DNA from: a virus
Strand: one strand, 5' to 3'
Virus genome (UHGV): UHGV-0317772
DNA: 39,687 bases
The notes beneath the pieces were generated by a model. It saw nothing but the letters and a program-made list of their open reading frames with translations. It was not told the origin of the DNA and ran no database searches. Made by a program: the position numbers and the translations under genes. Positions 5,343 to 30,585 of this stretch are shown here, piece after piece. How positions within the stretch are numbered: the stretch's first letter is position 1; each line of letters starts with the position of its first letter.

Positions 5343-5416
5343 GTACCCTTAGCTCAGTTGGTCAGAGCAGACGGCTCATAACCGTCCGGTCGTAGGTTCG
5401 AGTCCTACAGGGTACA
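5343..5416 (+). tRNA. tRNA-Met (anticodon CAT; elongator type, possibly tRNA-Ile2 if lysidinylated)
   Basis: Hand-folded cloverleaf. Acceptor GTACCCT/AGGGTAC, D-arm GCTC-AGTTGGTCA-GAGC, anticodon stem GACGG/CCGTC with loop CTCATAA, variable loop CGGTC, T-arm GTAGG-TTCGAGT-CCTAC. No CCA is encoded. Confidence 0.85.
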
Positions 5417-22089: not shown

Positions 22090-22292
22090 AGATTTATGTA
22101 GTAAAGTTTGGAAATCAATTTTACAGAAGTGATGAACGTTCTATAGGGGCTAACACATTATCCATTGTAGACATACTCCAAAGTGCAAGATGGTTTGATA
22201 ATCTCGAAGAAGCTAACCAAGTTTCACGACGACTTGGTGGATTAGCGCAAGTATATGAACTGGTCACTATCGATCACGAGGAGGTAGAGTAA
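22086..22292 (+). CDS. Hypothetical protein
   Basis: 68 aa with RBS GGGAGGATACAGAATG. Confidence 0.4.
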   Translation: MKIYVVKFGNQFYRSDERSIGANTLSIVDILQSARWFDNLEEANQVSRRLGGLAQVYELVTIDHEEVE

Positions 22293-22588
22293 TGAAACTA
22301 AAAGACGGATTCTACTCTAGCAGTCACGGTATCGGAGGTTTAATGCTAGATATGCCGACAAAGAACCCTAAAACACGTAAGAAACCAAAATTCAAAGTCG
22401 GTGACATGGTTCGCTGCGAAGCAGAAGGGTTCATCTATCCGTTTCGTGGATATGTAGAGCATCTCTATAATCACTCAGCGATCATTCGCATTGAAAACAC
22501 GATGGAATGCGACAAGTGGTTAGCGAAAAGCAAAGATAATTTAGCAGTGGTGAGATTGGTGGATATTGAACTAATCAATGACAAATAA
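22292..22588 (+). CDS. Hypothetical protein
   Basis: 98 aa. Confidence 0.4.
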   Translation: MKLKDGFYSSSHGIGGLMLDMPTKNPKTRKKPKFKVGDMVRCEAEGFIYPFRGYVEHLYNHSAIIRIENTMECDKWLAKSKDNLAVVRLVDIELINDK

Positions 22589-22660
22589 AAAAGCCGGATC
22601 GCTCCGACTGATCTAATAAATTCCACAAGTTTATTATATCACATAAAGGAGCGGTTTGAC

Positions 22661-23077
22661 TTGATGCAATTGTTACGAGAGGTAGATTTCAAACAGACAA
22701 GATGTAATGCGAGAGATGTGCTGAAGAACTTTCGGCGCTTGGAGCGGATGGCAGGTCGCTCTTTGATAGATATTAAGTCGCCGATTATTACGGATATGCC
22801 GAAGGCACCAAAGCACGGCAATAAGGCAGAAGACGCGATCATTCAGATGATGGATATAGAAACGGAGAGAGATGCGATTCTAGCGGCTTTGATGGCTCTT
22901 AGTCTGATTAGTCGTCAGATACTCTACTACAGCTTCTGTGTGCCAGATAGCTTCTCAAACTACAGAATTAGCCGTGAAGTGGGTTATTCAGAAAGAAGTA
23001 TACAACGGATGAAGTCGGAAGCTCTAATAGAGTTTGCAGAAGCATATAAACACGGAAAAATAATTGCTTATAAATAA
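22661..23077 (+). CDS. ArpU-family late-gene transcriptional regulator
   Basis: 138 aa. Size, position (last gene before the packaging module) and the sigma-region-4-like C-terminal half (RISREVGYSERSIQRMKSEALIEFAEAY) fit the ArpU family. Confidence 0.6.
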   Translation: MMQLLREVDFKQTRCNARDVLKNFRRLERMAGRSLIDIKSPIITDMPKAPKHGNKAEDAIIQMMDIETERDAILAALMALSLISRQILYYSFCVPDSFSNYRISREVGYSERSIQRMKSEALIEFAEAYKHGKIIAYK

Positions 23078-23079
23078 TT

Positions 23080-23112
23080 TGGCGGTTTTTTGGCGGAATG
23101 ATGGCGGTTTTT
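23080..23112 (+). repeat. Three TGGCGG motifs phased exactly 11 bp apart
   Basis: TGGCGGttttt, TGGCGGaatga and TGGCGGttttt start immediately after the ArpU stop. Confidence 0.6.
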
Positions 23113-23217
23113 AGACATTTACCAGTGTTATTATGGTAGTGTCGAAAGATTAGGAAACAGGATCGACAAAATAAACGAAGGGAGGCAATCTCCCTCATCG
23201 TTTTAAACTTCTTCTTA

Positions 23218-23358
23218 GATAGACAGCAACTAATTATGAAGAAAAGGATGTGAATTCAACTCCTCCTAAATTCTTCATCGGTTGCTGTTTATTTTGATTA
23301 GACAGCAGCACTCACAAAACTAAACATGTTCTTGTCGTCTTTCAACTGCTGCTGTCTA
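23218..23358 (+). repeat. Four copies of T(A/T)GACAGCA(A/G)C in alternating orientation, forming two long-loop hairpins
   Basis: The first hairpin has arms ACAGCAAC..TGAAGAA at 23223-23243 and 23271-23288. The second has a perfect 11 bp stem TAGACAGCAGC/GCTGCTGTCTA at 23299-23309 and 23348-23358. Confidence 0.55.
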
Positions 23359-23385
23359 TTAATTTATGTATTGGAGGGAAGAAAA

Positions 23386-23538
23386 ATGAAATTATCAGTA
23401 GAAGGCACTCCAGAAGAAATACAAGAATTGCTCCAAGCTATTGGTAGTAGCAAGGAGCAAAAGGTAAGTGTTTCTAATTCAGATATTGACGGTATTTGCA
23501 ATTGTTTAAACAGAGAAAAAATATCTAATCCTTACTAA
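23386..23538 (+). CDS. Hypothetical small protein (50 aa)
   Basis: RBS GGAGGGAAGAAAAATG. Confidence 0.35.
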   Translation: MKLSVEGTPEEIQELLQAIGSSKEQKVSVSNSDIDGICNCLNREKISNPY

Positions 23539-23822
23539 GAGAAAATATGTTCGTTAATGAATTTCCAATTTTCCTCTGTAGCTCTACCTTGATAATTTTT
23601 TTGCAGTTCACAGATGAATAAGGAATCGTTATTATCAAGTACTGTATTTAATTTTTCACACATTTGATTTGGATTCAAATTAGTTTTAACTAACCAAAAA
23701 GATTTTTGTAGCTTTATATATGCCCCAAATTCTTTTATTATTTCAAATACTTTATCATACTTTTGCCCTGGGTTATTAAGATCATAACTAATCATGTAGG
23801 GTTTATACATGTTGTCTTGCAC
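23535..23822 (-). CDS. Lone Cas2-fold-like small protein (moron)
   Basis: 95 aa, on the opposite strand, with its own promoter. The pattern YMISYDL..KYDKVFEIIKEFGAYIKLQKSFWLV..NPNQMCEKLNTVLDNNDSLFICEL parallels the Cas2/VapD beta1-alpha1-beta2...DS.R.Y.L layout. Confidence 0.35.
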   Translation of the reverse strand: MQDNMYKPYMISYDLNNPGQKYDKVFEIIKEFGAYIKLQKSFWLVKTNLNPNQMCEKLNTVLDNNDSLFICELQKNYQGRATEENWKFINEHIFS

Positions 23823-23865
23823 ATCCTTGTTTTATATTTCAGCGGACCACTCGCTGATAAATAAA

Positions 23866-23893
23866 ATTATACGCTTAGTATTTATTTTCACAA
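23866..23893 (-). promoter_or_regulatory. Promoter TTGTGA-16-TATAAT for the minus-strand moron
   Basis: Read on the minus strand. It lies about 40 nt upstream of the ATG at 23822. Confidence 0.5.
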
Positions 23894-23930
23894 TATTAAT
23901 TTATCGTAATAACTTTTGAGTAAATAGAAC

Positions 23931-23962
23931 AAAAAACCTGCACTAGTTTCCGCTAGTACAGG
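23931..23962 (-). terminator. Minus-strand rho-independent terminator upstream of the moron promoter (insulator)
   Basis: CCTGCACTAG-tttccg-CTAGTACAGG (9/10 bp) followed, on the minus strand, by TTTTTTGTT. Confidence 0.45.
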
Positions 23963-24119
23963 CAGTGACTATATCGGTTGATAATCTAGCATATATTAAA
24001 AATAATTGCAAGAAAAGAAATTTATAGTGGTTTATACCAAATTATCAAAGCAATGTTATTTTGTTGCTGTCTATTGTTTTTTAATTATTCACACGATAAC
24101 TAAAGGTGGGTGAAGAGAA

Positions 24120-24203
24120 ATGATTCCATTAATAATTTCAATTTTTGCGCTCTGTCTTAATGTCTATATGATTGGATTTAAAAATGGGCAAAATAAAAAA
24201 TAG
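24120..24203 (+). CDS. Small hydrophobic peptide (27 aa)
   Basis: RBS AAAGGTGGGTGAAGAGAAATG and sequence MIPLIISIFALCLNVYMIGFKNGQNKK. Confidence 0.3.
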   Translation: MIPLIISIFALCLNVYMIGFKNGQNKK

Positions 24204-24228
24204 TAGCAGCCAAGAATAATTTTATAGT

Positions 24229-24524
24229 GTCACTGTGGCGGAAAGGGTAGACGCTAAGCATGTGTGCTAGGTCAATGCTTCGGCAACCATGCAAGGTTCG
24301 ATTCCTTGCCAGCGACATTAAATGCCTATGACGGTTACGACTACCGAAAAAAGATCGTTAAGAAGCTATACGGTGCTACGTACGGCAATGTAGTAAGTGT
24401 GCTATCTGTACACCACCAAGCTTCGGTCACTGTGGCGGAAGTAGAAGACGCAGCGGTAAATGGCGAGTAGCCTCGTGAGAGCCTGGTAAGTTCTCGTGAG
24501 TGGTGCAATCCCACTCCAGCGACT
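24229..24524 (+). ncRNA. Tandem pair of tRNA-like structured RNA elements (unit A 24229-24317; unit B 24426-24524)
   Basis: Both units start GTCACTG-TG-GCGG..AGACGC and end with a 6 bp stem, 7 nt loop, then CAGCGAC. The terminal stems covary (GCAAGG-TTCGATT-CCTTGC versus GAGTGG-TGCAATC-CCACTC). The ends pair 6/7 like an acceptor stem. Unit B carries an anticodon-arm-like AGAGC-CTGGTAA-GTTCT. GC content is locally raised and protein coding is implausible. Confidence 0.4.
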
Positions 24525-24665
24525 TTAAGCAACCGAGGCATCGGCGGTTTAAAAATATAGGGGTGCGCAATTTCGTACGCGTTTTGTGCATCGTGCAAGT
24601 TACTATTACATATTAGATCACTCTTTGAGTGGTCTTTTTATTTTTGCACAAAGGAGGAAACAACA

Positions 24666-24833
24666 ATGTATAGACCACAATACTTAGAACAGAAGTATGA
24701 AGTAATCACTGTTCATAAAGGTAATGGCGAAAAAGTATATGAGTATAGAAGACCAATAAAGAGCGATACATATAAACGAAAGGAAAACAATGAAGTTATT
24801 CCATTGTATGGCAAAAGAATAGCTAAGCATTAA
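24666..24833 (+). CDS. Hypothetical small basic protein (55 aa)
   Basis: RBS AAAGGAGGAAACAACAATG. Confidence 0.4.
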   Translation: MYRPQYLEQKYEVITVHKGNGEKVYEYRRPIKSDTYKRKENNEVIPLYGKRIAKH

Positions 24834-24858
24834 ATAAGATTGCGAAAGGAGACGGAAC

Positions 24859-25203
24859 ATGACCGAGGAATTCTATAGATGGCTATTACAGTTGACAAGA
24901 GAAGATCGTTTGGTTAAGTTCTATCAGTCTCCTAAATGGCGCAGGCTTAGAGAGAAAGCGATGAAACGAGATCACTATGAATGCCAAGAGTGTAGAAGAC
25001 TAGGTAAGTATCATAGAGTAGAGAACGTTCATCATATAAAGGAAGTCAAGGATAGACCTGACTTAGCTTTAGATTTAGATAATCTTATTTGTTTATGTGT
25101 TGAACATCATAATGAAGTTCATGGCAGATATCTTACAGCATTAGATAAACAAGAGAAGAAGATAGAAAGCTTTGCTAACTTCGATGCAAGTGAAAGGTGG
25201 TAA
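24859..25203 (+). CDS. HNH endonuclease (packaging-associated)
   Basis: The motif CQECRRLGKYHRVENVHHIKEVKDRPDLALDLDNLICLCVEHHNEVH is the HNH signature, and the gene sits upstream of terS. Confidence 0.8.
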   Translation: MTEEFYRWLLQLTREDRLVKFYQSPKWRRLREKAMKRDHYECQECRRLGKYHRVENVHHIKEVKDRPDLALDLDNLICLCVEHHNEVHGRYLTALDKQEKKIESFANFDASERW

Positions 25204-25207
25204 GTGC

Positions 25208-25489
25208 ATGATCATCAATGATAATGGCAGAGAGTATGATACAGAAAAGATTGAAGAGTATTCATCTTATACTCAGGGATTAATTAAACGTTTGATATAC
25301 GTTCGCTATGTAGGTATTAGGGATCTGTTATCAGATAACTGTTGTAGTAAATACAAAGTGAATCAAGTAAGAGAAGCGTTGAATAAAGATAATAACGTCG
25401 AAAGAATAAAAAATGTTTTTGGATATAGTATTGAAGAGATTAATTATTACATTGACTTCGCTGAAGCTTTCATTCCGATGGTGAGATAA
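25208..25489 (+). CDS. Hypothetical protein
   Basis: 93 aa. The start ATG was chosen inside the listed ORF. Confidence 0.35.
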   Translation: MIINDNGREYDTEKIEEYSSYTQGLIKRLIYVRYVGIRDLLSDNCCSKYKVNQVREALNKDNNVERIKNVFGYSIEEINYYIDFAEAFIPMVR

Positions 25490-25591
25490 CCCCCCCTTAA
25501 AATAAATCGCAAATTTTTTGGGGGTGATGAAACGGAGGGGGCTGTCAGGAAAAGAGATTTTTTCGAACTTTATCATGAAAGGAGGGCTAAA

Positions 25592-25906
25592 ATGTTTAAA
25601 AACGAATTGTCTCAAAATCGCTACAGAGAAAAATTACGCCGCTCTTTAATAAGCCAATTGGAAAGTCAGAAAACAAATATTGAGCCATTCTTAGATAATG
25701 TTGATCGTTATATCAGTTTATGGGAAACGGCGATATCACTGGAAGAAGATATATCCGAGAACGGCATTAGACTGGAGAATGGTAAAAAGAATGAATCAGT
25801 AGCGTTGCTTGTTTCTGTCAACAAACAAATGGGATTGATGTTGGATAAACTTGCCATTACTCCTGAATTGGTAGGTGAAGCAAATGAATCAATTCCTGAG
25901 TTATAA
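25592..25906 (+). CDS. terS: Terminase small subunit (P27 family-like)
   Basis: 104 aa with RBS GAAAGGAGGGCTAAAATG. It is directly upstream of and overlapping terL, and the size and position are typical for cos phages that encode an HNH. Confidence 0.6.
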   Translation: MFKNELSQNRYREKLRRSLISQLESQKTNIEPFLDNVDRYISLWETAISLEEDISENGIRLENGKKNESVALLVSVNKQMGLMLDKLAITPELVGEANESIPEL

Positions 25907-27578
25907 GCATATTGAAAATTGGTTCAAAGCTATAGAAGAAGGCACTATCAAGGTATGCAAAGAGCAATTATTGCTAAAAAATTATCTAGAAGAAAGAGTC
26001 TTTACTAGAGAAGATATTTACTTCGATAAGCAGATGGTAGAGGATTCAATCAATATACCAGCACAATACTTTCCATTCGAATTAATTCCGTGGGAAAAAT
26101 TTCTACAATGTTTTATTTATGGTGTTCGATGGAAAAAAGATAAAACACTAGTGTTCAATAGATATCTTTCATTAATGGGACGTGGTAATGGTAAAACTGG
26201 TTTTGCTTCTTGGAACAACTTCTTTCTACTAACCGCTAAACACGGTATTAAAAATTATGATATTGATATCTATGCCAATAATGAAAGCCAAGCAAAGACT
26301 AGTTTTGATGATGTATTTAAAGTAATTAAAGATCATCCTGATTTAGATAAAAAAGTATTTAAAGCTACGAAGGAAGTTATTCAAAATATCGCTACAAACA
26401 GCAAACTTCGTTATAACACGGCAAATGCTAGAACAAAAGATGGGAAGCGACCAGGTGCAAACCGCTTTGATGAAATTCACGAAAATGAAGATTATTCAAT
26501 GATAAATGTGGCTACTTCTGGTGGTGGTAAAATTCGAGATTATAGAGAATTTTATGATACAACTAATGGTCATGTTCGTGGTGGTCCGCTTGATGACATT
26601 ATAGAAGAATCAAAAATGATTCTTTCTGGAGAACTTGGAATTGACAAGGATGGAGCAGAATTTTCTAGTTTGTTTCCATTTATTTGTCGCTTGGATAACG
26701 ATAATGAAGTTGATGATCCCGACATGTGGGAAAAAGCTTGTCCAACTATTAATTACAATGCAGATTTAAAACGGAAAATGTTTCAAGAATACTCTCAAAT
26801 GCAACGTAATGCTGGTTTAAGACTTACGTTCATGACCAAACGAATGAACAGACCTATGGAAGATACACGATTTGCTGTTGCTTCATATGATGATGTTCTG
26901 CATACGAAAGAAAAAGAATTTCCTGAAAAAATGGATGAAGTGATAGGAACAGTCGATTTTGCTGATAGACGAGATTTTGCCAGCGTTGGGTTGCTAGGAA
27001 AATACGATAAAGATGTTTATTTTACACAACATACTTTTATCCACGAATCAGCCCTTCGATTACAAAACATCAAACGAGAGGTTATAGATATTTCTATAGA
27101 TCAAGGAAAATCACAGATCGTTCATGGAAAAAATATAGAAGCTGATTATATTGTAGGTTGGTTTCTTGAAATGAGTAATAAATATTATATTAAAAAAATC
27201 GCTATGGATATGTACCGTGCAAAAATATTGAAGCCCGCTTTAGAAGAAGCAGGTTTTACTGTGGAAATTGTTCGAAGCGGATCTGTTACACATGGTATGT
27301 TAAAAGATCTGGTTGATGACCTTTTTATTAATCAACGTTTATTTTTTGGTGACGATGCGATTATGCGTTGGTATTGCATGAATGTATATGAAGAGCATAT
27401 TTCTAATGGAAATATACGCTATGAAAAAATAGAACCTGAAACTAGAAAAACGGATGGCTTTTTTTCATTCCTTCATGGTTTGAATTTTTTAGATGATATT
27501 TATGATTCTGCTCCTGTAACAGTCACAAATAGCTCAGTAGAAAATACAGGAACTGGATTTACTCCTCTAGTATTCTAA
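25875..27578 (+). CDS. terL: Terminase large subunit
   Basis: 567 aa with Walker A-like GRGNGKTG, an ATPase N-terminal domain and a nuclease C-terminal domain. Confidence 0.85.
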   Translation: MKQMNQFLSYKHIENWFKAIEEGTIKVCKEQLLLKNYLEERVFTREDIYFDKQMVEDSINIPAQYFPFELIPWEKFLQCFIYGVRWKKDKTLVFNRYLSLMGRGNGKTGFASWNNFFLLTAKHGIKNYDIDIYANNESQAKTSFDDVFKVIKDHPDLDKKVFKATKEVIQNIATNSKLRYNTANARTKDGKRPGANRFDEIHENEDYSMINVATSGGGKIRDYREFYDTTNGHVRGGPLDDIIEESKMILSGELGIDKDGAEFSSLFPFICRLDNDNEVDDPDMWEKACPTINYNADLKRKMFQEYSQMQRNAGLRLTFMTKRMNRPMEDTRFAVASYDDVLHTKEKEFPEKMDEVIGTVDFADRRDFASVGLLGKYDKDVYFTQHTFIHESALRLQNIKREVIDISIDQGKSQIVHGKNIEADYIVGWFLEMSNKYYIKKIAMDMYRAKILKPALEEAGFTVEIVRSGSVTHGMLKDLVDDLFINQRLFFGDDAIMRWYCMNVYEEHISNGNIRYEKIEPETRKTDGFFSFLHGLNFLDDIYDSAPVTVTNSSVENTGTGFTPLVF

Positions 27579-27597
27579 CTTGAAAGGAGGTGAGAAA

Positions 27598-28776
27598 GTG
27601 GGGATTTTTCAAAAGGCGGTAGGATACTTCACAAAAAAAGCAACGGTTCCTTTAGAAGAATACTTTTGTAAATTGCAAGTTGATTTTGTGTATCGAAAAT
27701 TTGCGATTGAAACTTGTATTGATTTGATTGCAAATGCGATGAGTAAAGCGGAATTCAAGTCATATGAAGATGGAAAAAATAAAAAGAATGATCTTTACTA
27801 TAGGCTGAATGTAGCTCCTAATAAGAAAAATAATGCAACAGAATTTAGAAAAAAACTGATCAGGAGATTAATATTCTACAATGAAGTATTGATCGTTTCT
27901 CCGTCTAATAATTCTAGCGAAATATTTATTGCGGATAGTTGGGATGTCACAGAATATGCATTGAAAGATGATGTGTTTTCTCAAGTGCAAATTAACAACA
28001 TAGTCCTTGATAGAGAATTTCTAGAAAGTGATGTTATCTATATAAAATACGCAGATCAACAAATTAGGCAACTAGTCGATGCGTATTATCAAGCGTATGG
28101 GAAACTCATTTCTAGTGCCATGAATGTTTACAAGCGCTCTAACGCTCGTAGATACGTACTGAAAGGGAATTTATTCCGACCGCAAGACAATACAACACAA
28201 GATCAAATCAATAAAATGATGACATCACAATTTAAGGCTTTTATGGAAGCTGATAATGCAGGTGCGGTATTTCAATTACAAAATGAGTACACATTAGAAG
28301 ATTTCAGCGGAAACTTCCAAAGCAATTCAAGAGATATAAAAAACTTAATAGACGACATCTTTGAGATGACAGCAGCAGCGTTTCACGTTCCGAAAAACCT
28401 ACTAAAGGGAGACATGAGTGGGTTATCGGATCAAGTGGACGCTTTTTTAATGTTCGAAATCATACCGATTGCTGAACTTATTCAGGATGCGTTTAACGCT
28501 AGTCTCTATGAAGTAGAAGAATACTTGTCAGGGAATTTTGTACGTGTGGATACAACTATGATCAAGATTACTAGCTTCAAAGATTTGGTTGACGCTATTG
28601 ATGTAGGCATTAGAAATGGAGTATTTACAATCAACGAAGGAAGAGAACGCGTTGGAAATGATCGCTCTGATAAGGCGATGGCAGATGAAATATTTATAAC
28701 TAAAAACAATCAACAAGTATCGAAAGGAGGTGAGGCGAATGACGACAATGAAAACATTTCTAGCAGTAAAGAATGA
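27598..28776 (+). CDS. Portal protein (HK97-family-like)
   Basis: GTG start after GAAAGGAGGTGAGAAA. About 392 aa, located after terL. Confidence 0.7.
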   Translation: MGIFQKAVGYFTKKATVPLEEYFCKLQVDFVYRKFAIETCIDLIANAMSKAEFKSYEDGKNKKNDLYYRLNVAPNKKNNATEFRKKLIRRLIFYNEVLIVSPSNNSSEIFIADSWDVTEYALKDDVFSQVQINNIVLDREFLESDVIYIKYADQQIRQLVDAYYQAYGKLISSAMNVYKRSNARRYVLKGNLFRPQDNTTQDQINKMMTSQFKAFMEADNAGAVFQLQNEYTLEDFSGNFQSNSRDIKNLIDDIFEMTAAAFHVPKNLLKGDMSGLSDQVDAFLMFEIIPIAELIQDAFNASLYEVEEYLSGNFVRVDTTMIKITSFKDLVDAIDVGIRNGVFTINEGRERVGNDRSDKAMADEIFITKNNQQVSKGGEANDDNENISSSKE

Positions 28777-29425
28777 AGGCGCAGTACCGCAAATTTTTAT
28801 TCAGGGATTTATTGGTTCTAGTTGGTTCTTTGAAGGGAATACTGACAAGGGAATCAAAAATATTTTGGATAGTCTAGGTGATCAAGAAGAAATTGAAGTA
28901 GTAATTAATTCAAACGGTGGAGACGTATTTCAAGGGATTGCTATTGGGAACTTACTTAAGTCAAATAAAGCAAAAGTTAACGTTGTGATTAACGGCTTAG
29001 CCGCTAGTGCTGCTTCAATTATCGCAATGGCTGGCGATACTATAAAAATCTACAACAATGCACAATTGATGATTCACCGCGCTTCCACATACGGAGAAGG
29101 AAATGTCGATGACTTCCGTACGATTGCTGACCAACTGGAATCAATTGATAAATCGGTAAAGGCTTCATATAAAACACGATTCAATGGCACAGATGAAGCA
29201 TTGCAAGAACTTCTTGAAAAAGAATCGTTTATGGATGCAGAAACAGCTTTGAGTTATGGATTGGTCGATGAAATTATCGATGCAGAAAATAGCTCAGGTA
29301 CTGAAGCTAAAAAAGAACAAAGCGTTGAAGAAATTTTGAATGACGTTAAAGAAAAAAGAGCAGAAAAAATTGCTGCATTTACAGCAGCATTAAATAAAAC
29401 ATTTGGACAAGGAGATGTAAAATAA
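28739..29425 (+). CDS. Prohead protease, ClpP-like (S14)
   Basis: GGDVFQG...LAASAASIIAMAGD...MIHRAS supplies a Ser/His catalytic pair in ClpP-like context. The start ATG follows AAAGGAGGTGAG. Confidence 0.75.
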   Translation: MTTMKTFLAVKNEGAVPQIFIQGFIGSSWFFEGNTDKGIKNILDSLGDQEEIEVVINSNGGDVFQGIAIGNLLKSNKAKVNVVINGLAASAASIIAMAGDTIKIYNNAQLMIHRASTYGEGNVDDFRTIADQLESIDKSVKASYKTRFNGTDEALQELLEKESFMDAETALSYGLVDEIIDAENSSGTEAKKEQSVEEILNDVKEKRAEKIAAFTAALNKTFGQGDVK

Positions 29426-30585
29426 TGACAGTTAAAAATTTAAAAGGTGTAACAGCTGCAAGCGACCAATTGATGAAAGCTTTTAAAGATGGTAACGAAG
29501 AATCTTTTAGCGCAGCTATGGTAAGCTTATCTAAGGAAATTCAGGATAAAATTTTAGAAGAAGCAACAGCAAAAAATCAAGATCAATTAGTATTAATGAA
29601 CCGTGGTCAGCGTGTATTAACTACACAAGAAACAAAATTCTATAACGAAGTAGTGAAAAACGAAGGTTTTGCAGGGGTCGAAGAATTAGTGCCAGCTACT
29701 GTATTTGAACGTGTATTTGAAGATTTAGAACAATCTCATCCACTATTGCAAAAAATTACTTTTGTTAACACAACTGGTGTAACAGAATGGATTGTGTCAC
29801 GTGGAGTCAATCCAGCATGGTGGGGTAAACTTTGCGAAGCTGTTAAAAAAGTTTTAGATAATGGCTTTGATGTAATTAACATGAAGCAGTTCAAGCTATC
29901 AGGTTATATTCCTGTATGTAAGGCAATGCTTGATTTAGGTCCAGTATGGTTAGATCGTTATGTCCGTACTGTTTTAGTAGAATCATTGAGAATTGCATTA
30001 GAACAAGCAATTGTTGATGGTACTGGTAAAGATATGCCAGTCGGAATGATGCGTGACATGAGCAAACAAACTAGCGGAGAATATGCTGCAAAAGAAGCAG
30101 AACCTATTACAGCTTTAGATGCTGTAACTATGGGCGGTTTGATGGCGCGACTATCAAAATTCAATATCGAAGGTGTGAATGATCCGATTTATCGTAATGT
30201 GAATCCTTCTGATGTGGTCCTAATTGTGAATCCAACTGATTACTGGTCTAAAGTATTCCCAGCTAAGACTGTACTAACTGCTAATGGAGAATACGTACAA
30301 GTATTGCCAGTACCAGTTTCAGATTTGCAGTCAACGGCTGTGCCAGAAGGAAAAGCAGTTATTGGGGTAGCCTCAGATTACTTCATGGGTGTAGGATCTA
30401 CACTAAAAATTGAAGCTTCAGATGAATACCATTTTGTTGAAGACGAACGCATTTATCTAGCTAAACAATATGCAAACGGTCAACCTAAACGTAACGATAG
30501 TTTCATTGTATTAGATATTAGCGCTTTGGGAACTACTACTACAACTACAAAACCAACAACCACAACAACTACAACACAAGCGTAG
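29425..30585 (+). CDS. Major capsid protein (HK97-fold) with C-terminal Thr-rich tail
   Basis: 386 aa, after the protease. It ends ...LGTTTTTTKPTTTTTTTQA. Confidence 0.75.
   Translation: MTVKNLKGVTAASDQLMKAFKDGNEESFSAAMVSLSKEIQDKILEEATAKNQDQLVLMNRGQRVLTTQETKFYNEVVKNEGFAGVEELVPATVFERVFEDLEQSHPLLQKITFVNTTGVTEWIVSRGVNPAWWGKLCEAVKKVLDNGFDVINMKQFKLSGYIPVCKAMLDLGPVWLDRYVRTVLVESLRIALEQAIVDGTGKDMPVGMMRDMSKQTSGEYAAKEAEPITALDAVTMGGLMARLSKFNIEGVNDPIYRNVNPSDVVLIVNPTDYWSKVFPAKTVLTANGEYVQVLPVPVSDLQSTAVPEGKAVIGVASDYFMGVGSTLKIEASDEYHFVEDERIYLAKQYANGQPKRNDSFIVLDISALGTTTTTTKPTTTTTTTQA

Follow-up and report, generated by a model that had tools for sequence, protein, structure and literature searches.

The 39,687-nucleotide (nt) virus genome UHGV-0317772, referred to throughout as the window, is that of an Enterococcus faecium-type temperate phage, with 22279-29900 being 95.7% identical to Enterococcus phage 4995_1. 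At 24229-24524 it carries two structured RNA units, A and B, which belong to a widespread, unannotated family of phage RNAs extending far beyond the Enterococcus phages. The members share a scaffold like that of a transfer RNA (tRNA), derived from tRNA-Leu, and are not decoding tRNAs. An earlier note, made from the sequence of the window alone, had read this region as a tandem pair of tRNA-like structured RNAs, which could be unusual or degenerate tRNAs, decoys or an undescribed non-coding RNA. The tRNA-like character is supported by the cloverleaf-like scaffold seen in homologues. The functional unit, however, is not the pair: single units are the usual arrangement and the two-unit layout with a conserved spacer is a subset, found at 23 loci.

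Anatomy of the two units

The units, the spacer and their parts are listed here.

24229-24316, plus strand: unit A, an A-type module of 88 nt with discriminator A73 at 24317; layout GTCACTG TG GCG-GAAAGGGTAGA-CGC ... GCAAGG-TTCGATT-CCTTGC CAGCGAC
24229-24235 with 24310-24316: acceptor stem of unit A, with an A4.C69 mismatch, followed by U8 G9
Within unit A: D-arm GCG/CGC with loop GAAAGGGTAGA, carrying A14, A15, G18 G19 and A21
Within unit A: remnant anticodon hairpin AGCA-TGTG-TGCT (4-base-pair (bp) stem, tetraloop)
Within unit A, 3' of the anticodon remnant: extended variable-arm hairpin GGT-caa-TGC-TTCG-GCA-ACC, followed by U48
Within unit A: T-arm GCAAGG-TTCGATT-CCTTGC
24318-24425, plus strand: spacer ("core") of 108 nt between units A and B
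24426-24523, plus strand: unit B, a B-type module of 98 nt with discriminator T (U73) at 24524; layout GTCACTG TG GCG-GAAGTAGAAGA-CGC ... GAGTGG-TGCAATC-CCACTC CAGCGAC
Within unit B: extra hairpin CGAG-TAGC-CTCG
24478-24494: anticodon-arm-like hairpin of unit B, AGAGC-CTGGTAA-GTTCT
Within unit B: T-arm GAGTGG-TGCAATC-CCACTC

The units start 197 nt apart and have the common 5' and 3' architecture described in the earlier note: the acceptor strands and the D-stem are identical, and in both units a 6-bp stem with a 7-nt loop is directly followed by CAGCGAC. Each has a D-arm, a 6-bp T-arm and a 7-bp acceptor stem, in which GTCACTG pairs with CAGCGAC at 6/7 positions, the exception being A.C at pair 4. 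The shared motif GTCACTG-TG-GCGG...AGACGC is present, with the correction that GCGG and AGACGC are 7 nt apart; the 11 nt previously given is the length of the GCG-to-CGC loop. A search for the 5' motif CTGTGGCGGA-N5-12-RACGC returned 2 occurrences in the window, where 0.00 were expected from 100 shuffles.

Unit A has the D-arm-like stem with its GG and the TTCGATT T-loop that had been noticed before, and carries the full set of tRNA elbow nucleotides (U8, A14, G18G19, A21, T54, C56, A58). Unit B departs from this set, with a D-loop, AAGTAGAAGA, that has no G18G19, and with the T-loop TGCAATC. The view that unit A has no anticodon arm of any kind had to be abandoned, since a 4-bp stem and tetraloop are kept ahead of the variable-arm hairpin. 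In unit B, a 26-nt insert does separate the D-arm from the anticodon-like hairpin. That hairpin is where it was said to be, but its proposed reading as Thr(GGU) fails, with the triplet drifting between GGT, AGT, GGC and AGG in near-identical copies from close relatives. The region is GC-enriched as claimed (0.45-0.53 across 24200-24600, compared with 0.26-0.31 upstream), and the dismissal of the overlapping open reading frames (ORFs) was sound: none of the four has a Pfam or PHROGs match, while neighbouring genes do match PHROG families.

Covariation and conserved positions

The covariation of the stems, which the earlier note had proposed from the two window units and suggested be sought in homologues, was found in both a viral and a metagenome set of scaffolds, the acceptor, D and T stems all being rich in compensatory changes. 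For scaffolds that are related to one another, and whose extraction demanded at least 6/7 acceptor pairs and at least 5/6 T-stem pairs (a rule that raises the percentage paired artificially and has no such effect on how varied the pair types are), 99.4% of cells are paired among the 58 distinct scaffolds of the viral set and 98.3% among the 51 of the metagenome set. In the viral set, 11/16 pairs have changed on both sides, and 0/500 shuffles reach this result or the percentage paired. In the metagenome set the figure is 9/16 pairs, with 144 cells changed on both sides; here 0/500 shuffles match the percentage paired or the number of changed cells, and 2/500 match the number of pairs changed. 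Sliding the partner strand leaves 30-45% of cells paired in the viral set and 30-42% in the metagenome set.

The acceptor stem illustrates this variety best. Across the family sets, 97.5-98.5% of its cells are paired, and the metagenome scaffolds show 4-6 pair types at each of acceptor pairs 1-4. When the 7 nt before the D-arm motif were taken blindly, they proved to be the complement of the 7 nt behind the T-arm in no fewer than 11 versions of the sequence, including GTCACTG/CAGTGAC, GTCGCTG/CAGCGAC, ATCGCTG/CAGCGAT, ACTGCTG/CAGCAGT, TGCACTG/CAGTGCA, GATTCTG/CAGAATC and TCATCTG/CAGATGA. The positions that are invariant or nearly so throughout the family are those of the tRNA elbow and core, namely U8, A14, A15, G18, G19, A21, U48 and G53-C61. 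For the window units, folds constrained to the cloverleaf come within 1-2 kcal/mol of the minimum free energy, at -27.6 kcal/mol compared with -28.7 for unit A and at -29.3 compared with -31.2 for unit B.

Some further features of the family were noted in passing. D-loop and T-loop variants are linked family-wide, AAAGGG occurring with TTCGATT and AATAGG with TGCAAAT. T-arm-like hairpins of the form GGTTCGAWTCC are nested inside some unit interiors, and some units have an insertion within the T-loop right after TG (GCAGGG TG, then ACTATACGAGTAAC...); the loci listed for these two features are L208, L227, L072, L158 (interiors), L211, L238, L248 and L273. An apparent hammerhead-like sequence, CTGATGAG, occurs in L173/L176.

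Origin from tRNA-Leu and loss of decoding

Positions 8-27 of unit A, comprising the D-arm, are identical to tRNA-Leu(taa) of phage EFDG1 at 17/20 positions, compared with 9-11/20 for the other EFDG1 tRNAs. In addition, when the unit A scaffold is given the anticodon and variable arms of E. coli tRNA-Leu, ARAGORN at default settings calls the resulting chimera tRNA-Leu(cag). The D-arm match and the call on the A chimera show that the scaffold comes from tRNA-Leu. The equivalent chimera on the unit B scaffold drew no tRNA call from ARAGORN. Unit A reads as a tRNA-Leu with its anticodon arm cut to AGCA-UGUG-UGCU and its variable arm remodelled.

Across the family, the anticodon/variable-arm region is a hypervariable insert of about 8-260 nt, and an anticodon arm of 5-bp stem and 7-nt loop in the standard position is absent from units A and B. 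Of the checks suggested in the earlier note, searches with ARAGORN and against Rfam detect neither unit as a tRNA. ARAGORN called 0/84 units at default settings, and its sole call on the window was a tRNA-Met, with no transfer-messenger RNA (tmRNA). With Rfam 15 (which includes GOLLD, ROOL, c4 antisense RNA and YrlA), no family reached the gathering threshold in the window and 26 related loci, and none matched the units when the window was searched at E-values up to 10. Given these results and the drifting "anticodon" of unit B, it can be concluded that the units are not decoding tRNAs.

Leucylation was also considered. The identity set of bacterial leucyl-tRNA synthetase, as established for E. 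coli, is A73 together with the A15-U48 and G18G19 frame. Unit A has A73, A15, U48 and G18G19, whereas unit B has U73. Over 99 contexts, 54 have U at N73, 39 have A, 5 have G and 1 has C; since N73 is not conserved, leucylation is unlikely as a general property of the family.

Distribution of the family

A blastn search of 24200-24560 against INPHARED gave no match, and the family was reached by motif scans and later via the leader of phage phiFL2A. A scan of IMG/VR with a 25-mer from the spacer found 22 loci; scanning the same database for the 5' scaffold found more than 112 viral loci, most with a single unit, and a scan for the T-arm only, with the acceptor left unconstrained, found more than 113. 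In metagenomes, the D-arm motif had at least 120 matches. Among those listed, 24 are callable tRNAs, 22 of them tRNA-Leu, and 76 of the non-callable ones close into units of 87-315 nt, on contigs of 27-54% GC. Altogether the scaffold is present on more than 90 metagenome contigs, and the samples with family loci come from gut, rumen, soil and water.

In GenBank, the unit is found in temperate phages (phiFL2A/B, phiFL3A/B, IME197 and VEsP-1) and in about 25 virulent Herelleviridae of about 150 kb, for example EFDG1, EFP01 and phiSHEF13/16. It is unannotated in every record inspected, and none of the papers open to the literature searches contains an earlier description of a tRNA-Leu-like unit family. 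Scaffolds of the B type occur in many loci, with varied T-loops and interiors. Truncated copies of the unit are present in L085 and L086.

Genomic setting

Two kinds of setting recur, the leader of the late operon and arrays of tRNA genes. The features around the window units are as follows.

23080-23135, plus strand: three TGGCGG(T/A) direct repeats and an extended -10 (tgTTATTAT), just past the arpU stop codon
23936-23963, minus strand: terminator, inside the 23906-24228 insertion
23978-24006, plus strand: sigma-70-like promoter TTGATA-17-AATAAT, a consensus match only
24528-24604, plus strand: second leader module, with conserved ends AGCAACCGAGG ... GTGTAGGTTGCT closing a variable interior
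24615-24645, plus strand: intrinsic terminator AGATCACTCTTTGAGTGGTCT and T-tract, directly before the ribosome-binding site (RBS) of the first late gene (24666)

In 68/114 loci an ArpU homologue is encoded upstream, on the strand of the unit and often only about 240 nt away, with HNH and TerL genes downstream. The ArpU protein of phiFL2A activates the late promoter and binds three 7-nt repeats that come right behind arpU, and these repeats are needed for ArpU-dependent late transcription (PMC3753634). The same repeat layout after arpU is seen in phiFL2A and in the window; by analogy, the repeats at 23080-23135 are likely to be ArpU boxes accompanied by a late promoter that would transcribe through the units. 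The hexamer TGGCGG also opens the D-arm of both units (24236-24241 and 24433-24438). This is probably a coincidence, because phages with GTAGGG boxes still have TGGCGG in their units.

The window units are displaced 1.1 kb downstream by inserted morons. One of these, a minus-strand gene of 95 amino acids at 23535-23822, has its own promoter-like site (23893-23866) and matches phrog_1090, a family with no function assigned in PHROGs; it adjoins the unit in 12 related loci. Next to the units, 23906-24228 is an insertion of about 320 bp that is missing from L012, L020 and L025. It holds the minus-strand terminator that the earlier note had placed beside the units, divergent promoter-like sites at 23978-24006 (plus strand) and 24048-24019 (minus strand), and a hydrophobic ORF of 27 amino acids with an RBS (24120-24203, MIPLIISIFALCLNVYMIGFKNGQNKK). 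The insertion looks like a moron of the type I toxin-antitoxin type. Judged by its sequence, the promoter at 23978-24006 is a possible second source of transcript, at the time of lysogeny, through the 27-amino-acid ORF and the units.

Downstream of the units, the second module was found at 90 loci with 29 interior types. The window copy has the 3' end GTGCAAGTTACT, a variant shared by 9 loci, in which three transitions give two C.A mismatches in the closing helix. The possibility that the unit interior is coupled to this module, as in self-targeting like that of P4 CI or P1 C4, was considered and dropped, since the same interior is joined to many different modules. The terminator at 24615-24645 belongs to the junction and not to the RNA module, because 4995_1 retains it while lacking the units.

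In the second setting the unit stands among tRNA genes, and it behaves as a tRNA-type gene. In EFDG1 it follows the phage tmRNA at a distance of 0 nt, inside the tRNA cluster: positions 1976-2529 of this locus (L199, NC_029009.1) comprise an unannotated tmRNA (Rfam 140.6 bits, tag AKNEELLAVA*) and then a 206-nt unit. Same-strand tRNA arrays hold 20/97 of the metagenome units. Temperate relatives (L134, which is phiFL2A, and L040, L044, L047 and L200) have genuine tRNA genes in the same leader, 120-400 nt downstream of the unit, of the types Arg-acg or Arg-tcg, Lys-ttt and Ile-aat. The leader tRNA of phiFL2A (1230-1304 of L134) is unannotated in NC_013643.1.

The spacer between the units

No other piece of the locus is as conserved as the spacer. 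Its identity is at least 96% across 23 loci, with 7 variants, and in these loci the ends of the units are conserved while their interiors have given way to sequences that are unrelated and differ in length. Around the spacer of L015, the unit types stand in reversed order. A predicted hairpin, CUACGU/AUGUAG, is backed by one G.U to A-U change; a helix predicted in the 5' part of the spacer was set aside, as the few substitutions there give it no support. The spacer has no match in Rfam or in INPHARED phages, and no antisense target of the spacer or of the unit interiors was found within the window. The sole open frame through it is broken by indels in 2/7 variants, and this, together with the absent Pfam and PHROGs matches, rules out a coding role for the spacer and the overlapping ORFs.

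Borders and proposed maturation

Similarity between loci starts exactly at acceptor base 1 and stops after N73, with dozens of unrelated flanks, as judged from 99 distinct flank contexts. In these, the base before the unit (position -1) is U in 70/99, position 74 is U in 92/99, position 75 is A or U in 94/99 and position 76 is a purine in 95/99; CCA is encoded in 0/99. The tRNA-Met(cat) of the window (5343-5416) is likewise CCA-less, and its trailer, A|TTAA, follows the N73-U74-W-R pattern of the units. Streptococcaceae belong to the same order as Enterococcus. Their tRNAs are all CCA-less and are matured by RNase Z (PMC8549757), an enzyme whose cut falls behind the discriminator unless C residues at that point suppress it (PMC7479834). 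The units have the features of a CCA-less pre-tRNA substrate: a coaxial acceptor/T helix with an elbow, an unpaired N73 and no C at positions 74-75. RNase Z of B. subtilis is reported to prefer U74. What the family keeps of a tRNA are the parts read by the maturation machinery, that is, the 7-bp acceptor, U8/A14, A15-U48, T-arm stacking and N73-U74, with G18G19 kept in the A type only.

On balance, these sequence features make it fairly probable that the units are excised by RNase P and RNase Z and then receive CCA, giving stable tRNA-shaped RNAs. Transcripts of the units would arise within the long leader of the late operon that ArpU activates, and the moron promoter at 23978-24006 may transcribe them as well. 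RNase P would cut at 24228/24229 and 24425/24426, and RNase Z after 24317 and after 24524, as in the CCA-less tRNAs of Lactobacillales. These cuts would yield two stable tRNA-shaped RNAs of 88 and 98 nt before CCA addition, and the same cuts would set free the 108-nt spacer, which would then be a small RNA in its own right, as with tRNA "punctuation" or a t-element.

Several observations weigh against this interpretation. The single-sequence folding energy of the units is no better than that of shuffles (z -0.67 and -0.64), and the evidence for their structure is comparative, not thermodynamic. Both window units have the A4.C69 acceptor mismatch. This state is common to 36/178 units and is found compensated to G-C in L026; the A.C of the window is a common intermediate. 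The acceptor and T helices add up to 7+6 = 13 bp and not 12 (7+5 in EFDG1 tRNA-Leu), G55 is present in most T-loops of the family (TGCAAAT), and the B type has a D-loop without G18G19 and a non-canonical T-loop. The mismatch, the missing GG, the odd T-loop, G55 or the 13-bp helix could each impair recognition by RNase P or RNase Z. The late genes are the same in phage 4995_1, where units are missing altogether; the module is thus dispensable. Finally, the unit of phiFL2A, which lies in a 790-nt arpU-terS leader and is followed by a tRNA-Arg, carries no insert; a role as a carrier of cargo therefore cannot be general, and the scaffold itself must matter.

Alternative explanations

The units lie between the ArpU-dependent promoter and a terminator directly before the first late gene, with no space for a promoter between that terminator and the RBS. 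Such a position would suit a cis-acting leader, in which the units control whether transcription passes the terminator at 24615-24645, or how stable the late mRNA is, much as put, EAR or elements of the lambda tR' type do. We consider this unlikely, as the unit is also found in the tRNA/tmRNA arrays of virulent Herelleviridae, which have no ArpU or such a terminator, and in tRNA arrays of unrelated metagenomic phages. Moreover, 4995_1 retains the terminator and late genes with morons instead of units, and unit, second module and downstream gene are reshuffled independently of one another. The sharing of TGGCGG by the ArpU-box core (23080-23115) and the start of the D-arm, in a region just upstream of the packaging genes, could alternatively mean that GTCACTGTGGCGGAA and CCAGYGAC are repeats acting as DNA, bound by ArpU, terminase (at cos or pac) or a recombinase. 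Compensatory changes, however, preserve the helices, with G.U pairs among them that are valid on the plus strand only, and U8, A14, the GG and the T-loop are strand-specific tRNA signatures. TGGCGG is also retained where the ArpU boxes read GTAGGG and in phages that have no ArpU, all of which makes a role at the DNA level very improbable.

A different possibility is that the units are decaying tRNA-Leu pseudogenes, functionless relics that have lost their anticodon arms. This would account for the lack of ARAGORN and Rfam calls, the acceptor mismatches of both window units, the truncated copies and the absence of the module from close relatives. It is difficult to reconcile with 98-99% pairing and compensatory double changes over hundreds of loci, in hosts of 27-54% GC, with the retention of the invariant tertiary nucleotides and U74, or with the compensation of A.C to G-C in L026, and we regard it as distinctly unlikely. 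The opposite case, in which the units are functional decoding tRNAs and unit B, for example, reads Thr codons via GGU, draws on the 5-bp stem and the 7-nt loop C-U-GGU-A-A of unit B at 24478-24494. Against it stand the variation of that triplet in near-identical copies, the 26-nt insert after the D-arm, the D-loop of unit B without GG, the bare tetraloop of unit A, the unconserved N73 and the failure of ARAGORN to call any of the 84 units; this case has next to no probability.

Possible function and significance

Returning to the tRNA-shaped RNAs that maturation would release, the role that we would guess first is an action in trans, in the conflict between phage and host. More specifically, though this is a tentative idea to which we give a low probability, the family could consist of anticodon-less tRNA-Leu mimics that serve as decoys or inhibitors of host immune enzymes recognising tRNA shape. 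Such enzymes could be, for example, nucleases cutting the variable loop of class II tRNAs or toxins modifying the acceptor end. The idea is suggested by the hypervariable centre of the units, by the adjoining tRNA-Lys and tRNA-Arg genes and by defences that cut class II variable loops; Septu is described as cutting the variable loop of the class II tRNA-Tyr (PMC13096335). If it is true, the hypervariable central domain would be the interface of an arms race, and the tRNA-Lys and tRNA-Arg of related leaders would be part of a counter-defence cassette.

Whatever the function, phages keep and diversify a tRNA body that has been stripped of decoding, and the family offers a testable entry into the question of what non-decoding, tRNA-like stable RNAs of phages are for. 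Its hosts include phiFL2A, a model for late activation by ArpU, and EFDG1, a therapy candidate. For annotation, the units mark the late-operon leader of ArpU phages, and there is a risk of their being taken for pseudo-tRNAs or of spurious ORFs being placed over them. They may also bear on the conflict between phage and host over tRNAs.

Comparison with known systems

Among the closest known systems are the class II tRNA-Leu, such as EFDG1 tRNA-Leu(UAA). The units resemble these in the 7-bp acceptor, U8, the D-arm (TGGCGGAA..GGTA.ACGC), A15-U48, the A-type T-arm (GGTTCGAWTCC), the absence of an encoded CCA and the tRNA genes in their neighbourhood. Unlike tRNA-Leu, they have no 7-nt anticodon loop, the anticodon and variable arms being replaced by the inserts; they also have a 6-bp T-stem, a T-loop that is mostly TGCAAAT and an N73 that may be U, A, G or C instead of a conserved A, and they are missed by ARAGORN and by Rfam RF00005.

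Among phage RNAs, T4 RNAC and RNAD are encoded beside the T4 tRNA cluster; their ends resemble those of a tRNA, and tRNA enzymes carry out their maturation. These RNAs (species 1 and 2) are small, non-coding and expressed late, and their function is still unknown (PMC9697503). They are like the present family in being small non-coding phage RNAs with an unexplained role. The probe sequence of RNAC lacks the TGGCGGAA and TGCAAAT signature, no sequence relation was seen and the host range is another one; unlike RNAC and RNAD, the family has a defined tRNA-Leu scaffold with a hypervariable centre.

Replacement of the anticodon arm by other RNA, around a module of acceptor, T-arm and D-loop, is also found in the tRNA-like domain of tmRNA and in YrlA, the latter with its ends at the opposite side of the fold. 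YrlA mimics tRNA (PMC4201824). In contrast to tmRNA, the units have no tag reading frame, pseudoknots or G3.U70; for the window, ARAGORN finds no tmRNA and Rfam gives only a 7-bit fragment of a T-loop. In the engineered "tRNA scaffold" of Ponchon and Dardel, made for recombinant RNA expression, an RNA takes the place of the anticodon arm and is reported to be processed and stabilised by the cell as a result; a paper from this group is PMC3753655. Its topology is that of the natural family, but it is a laboratory design, and some family members have no insert.

For the proposed processing, the nearest parallels are the t-elements of plant mitochondria, mascRNA/MALAT1 and the tRNA punctuation of mitochondria. 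The t-elements are tRNA-shaped, non-decoding structures within longer transcripts that are cut by RNase P and RNase Z and define the ends of neighbouring RNAs (PMC1920247). These systems are eukaryotic or organellar and have no homology to the units, for which processing is inferred, but the unit-spacer-unit layout of the window fits the same scheme.

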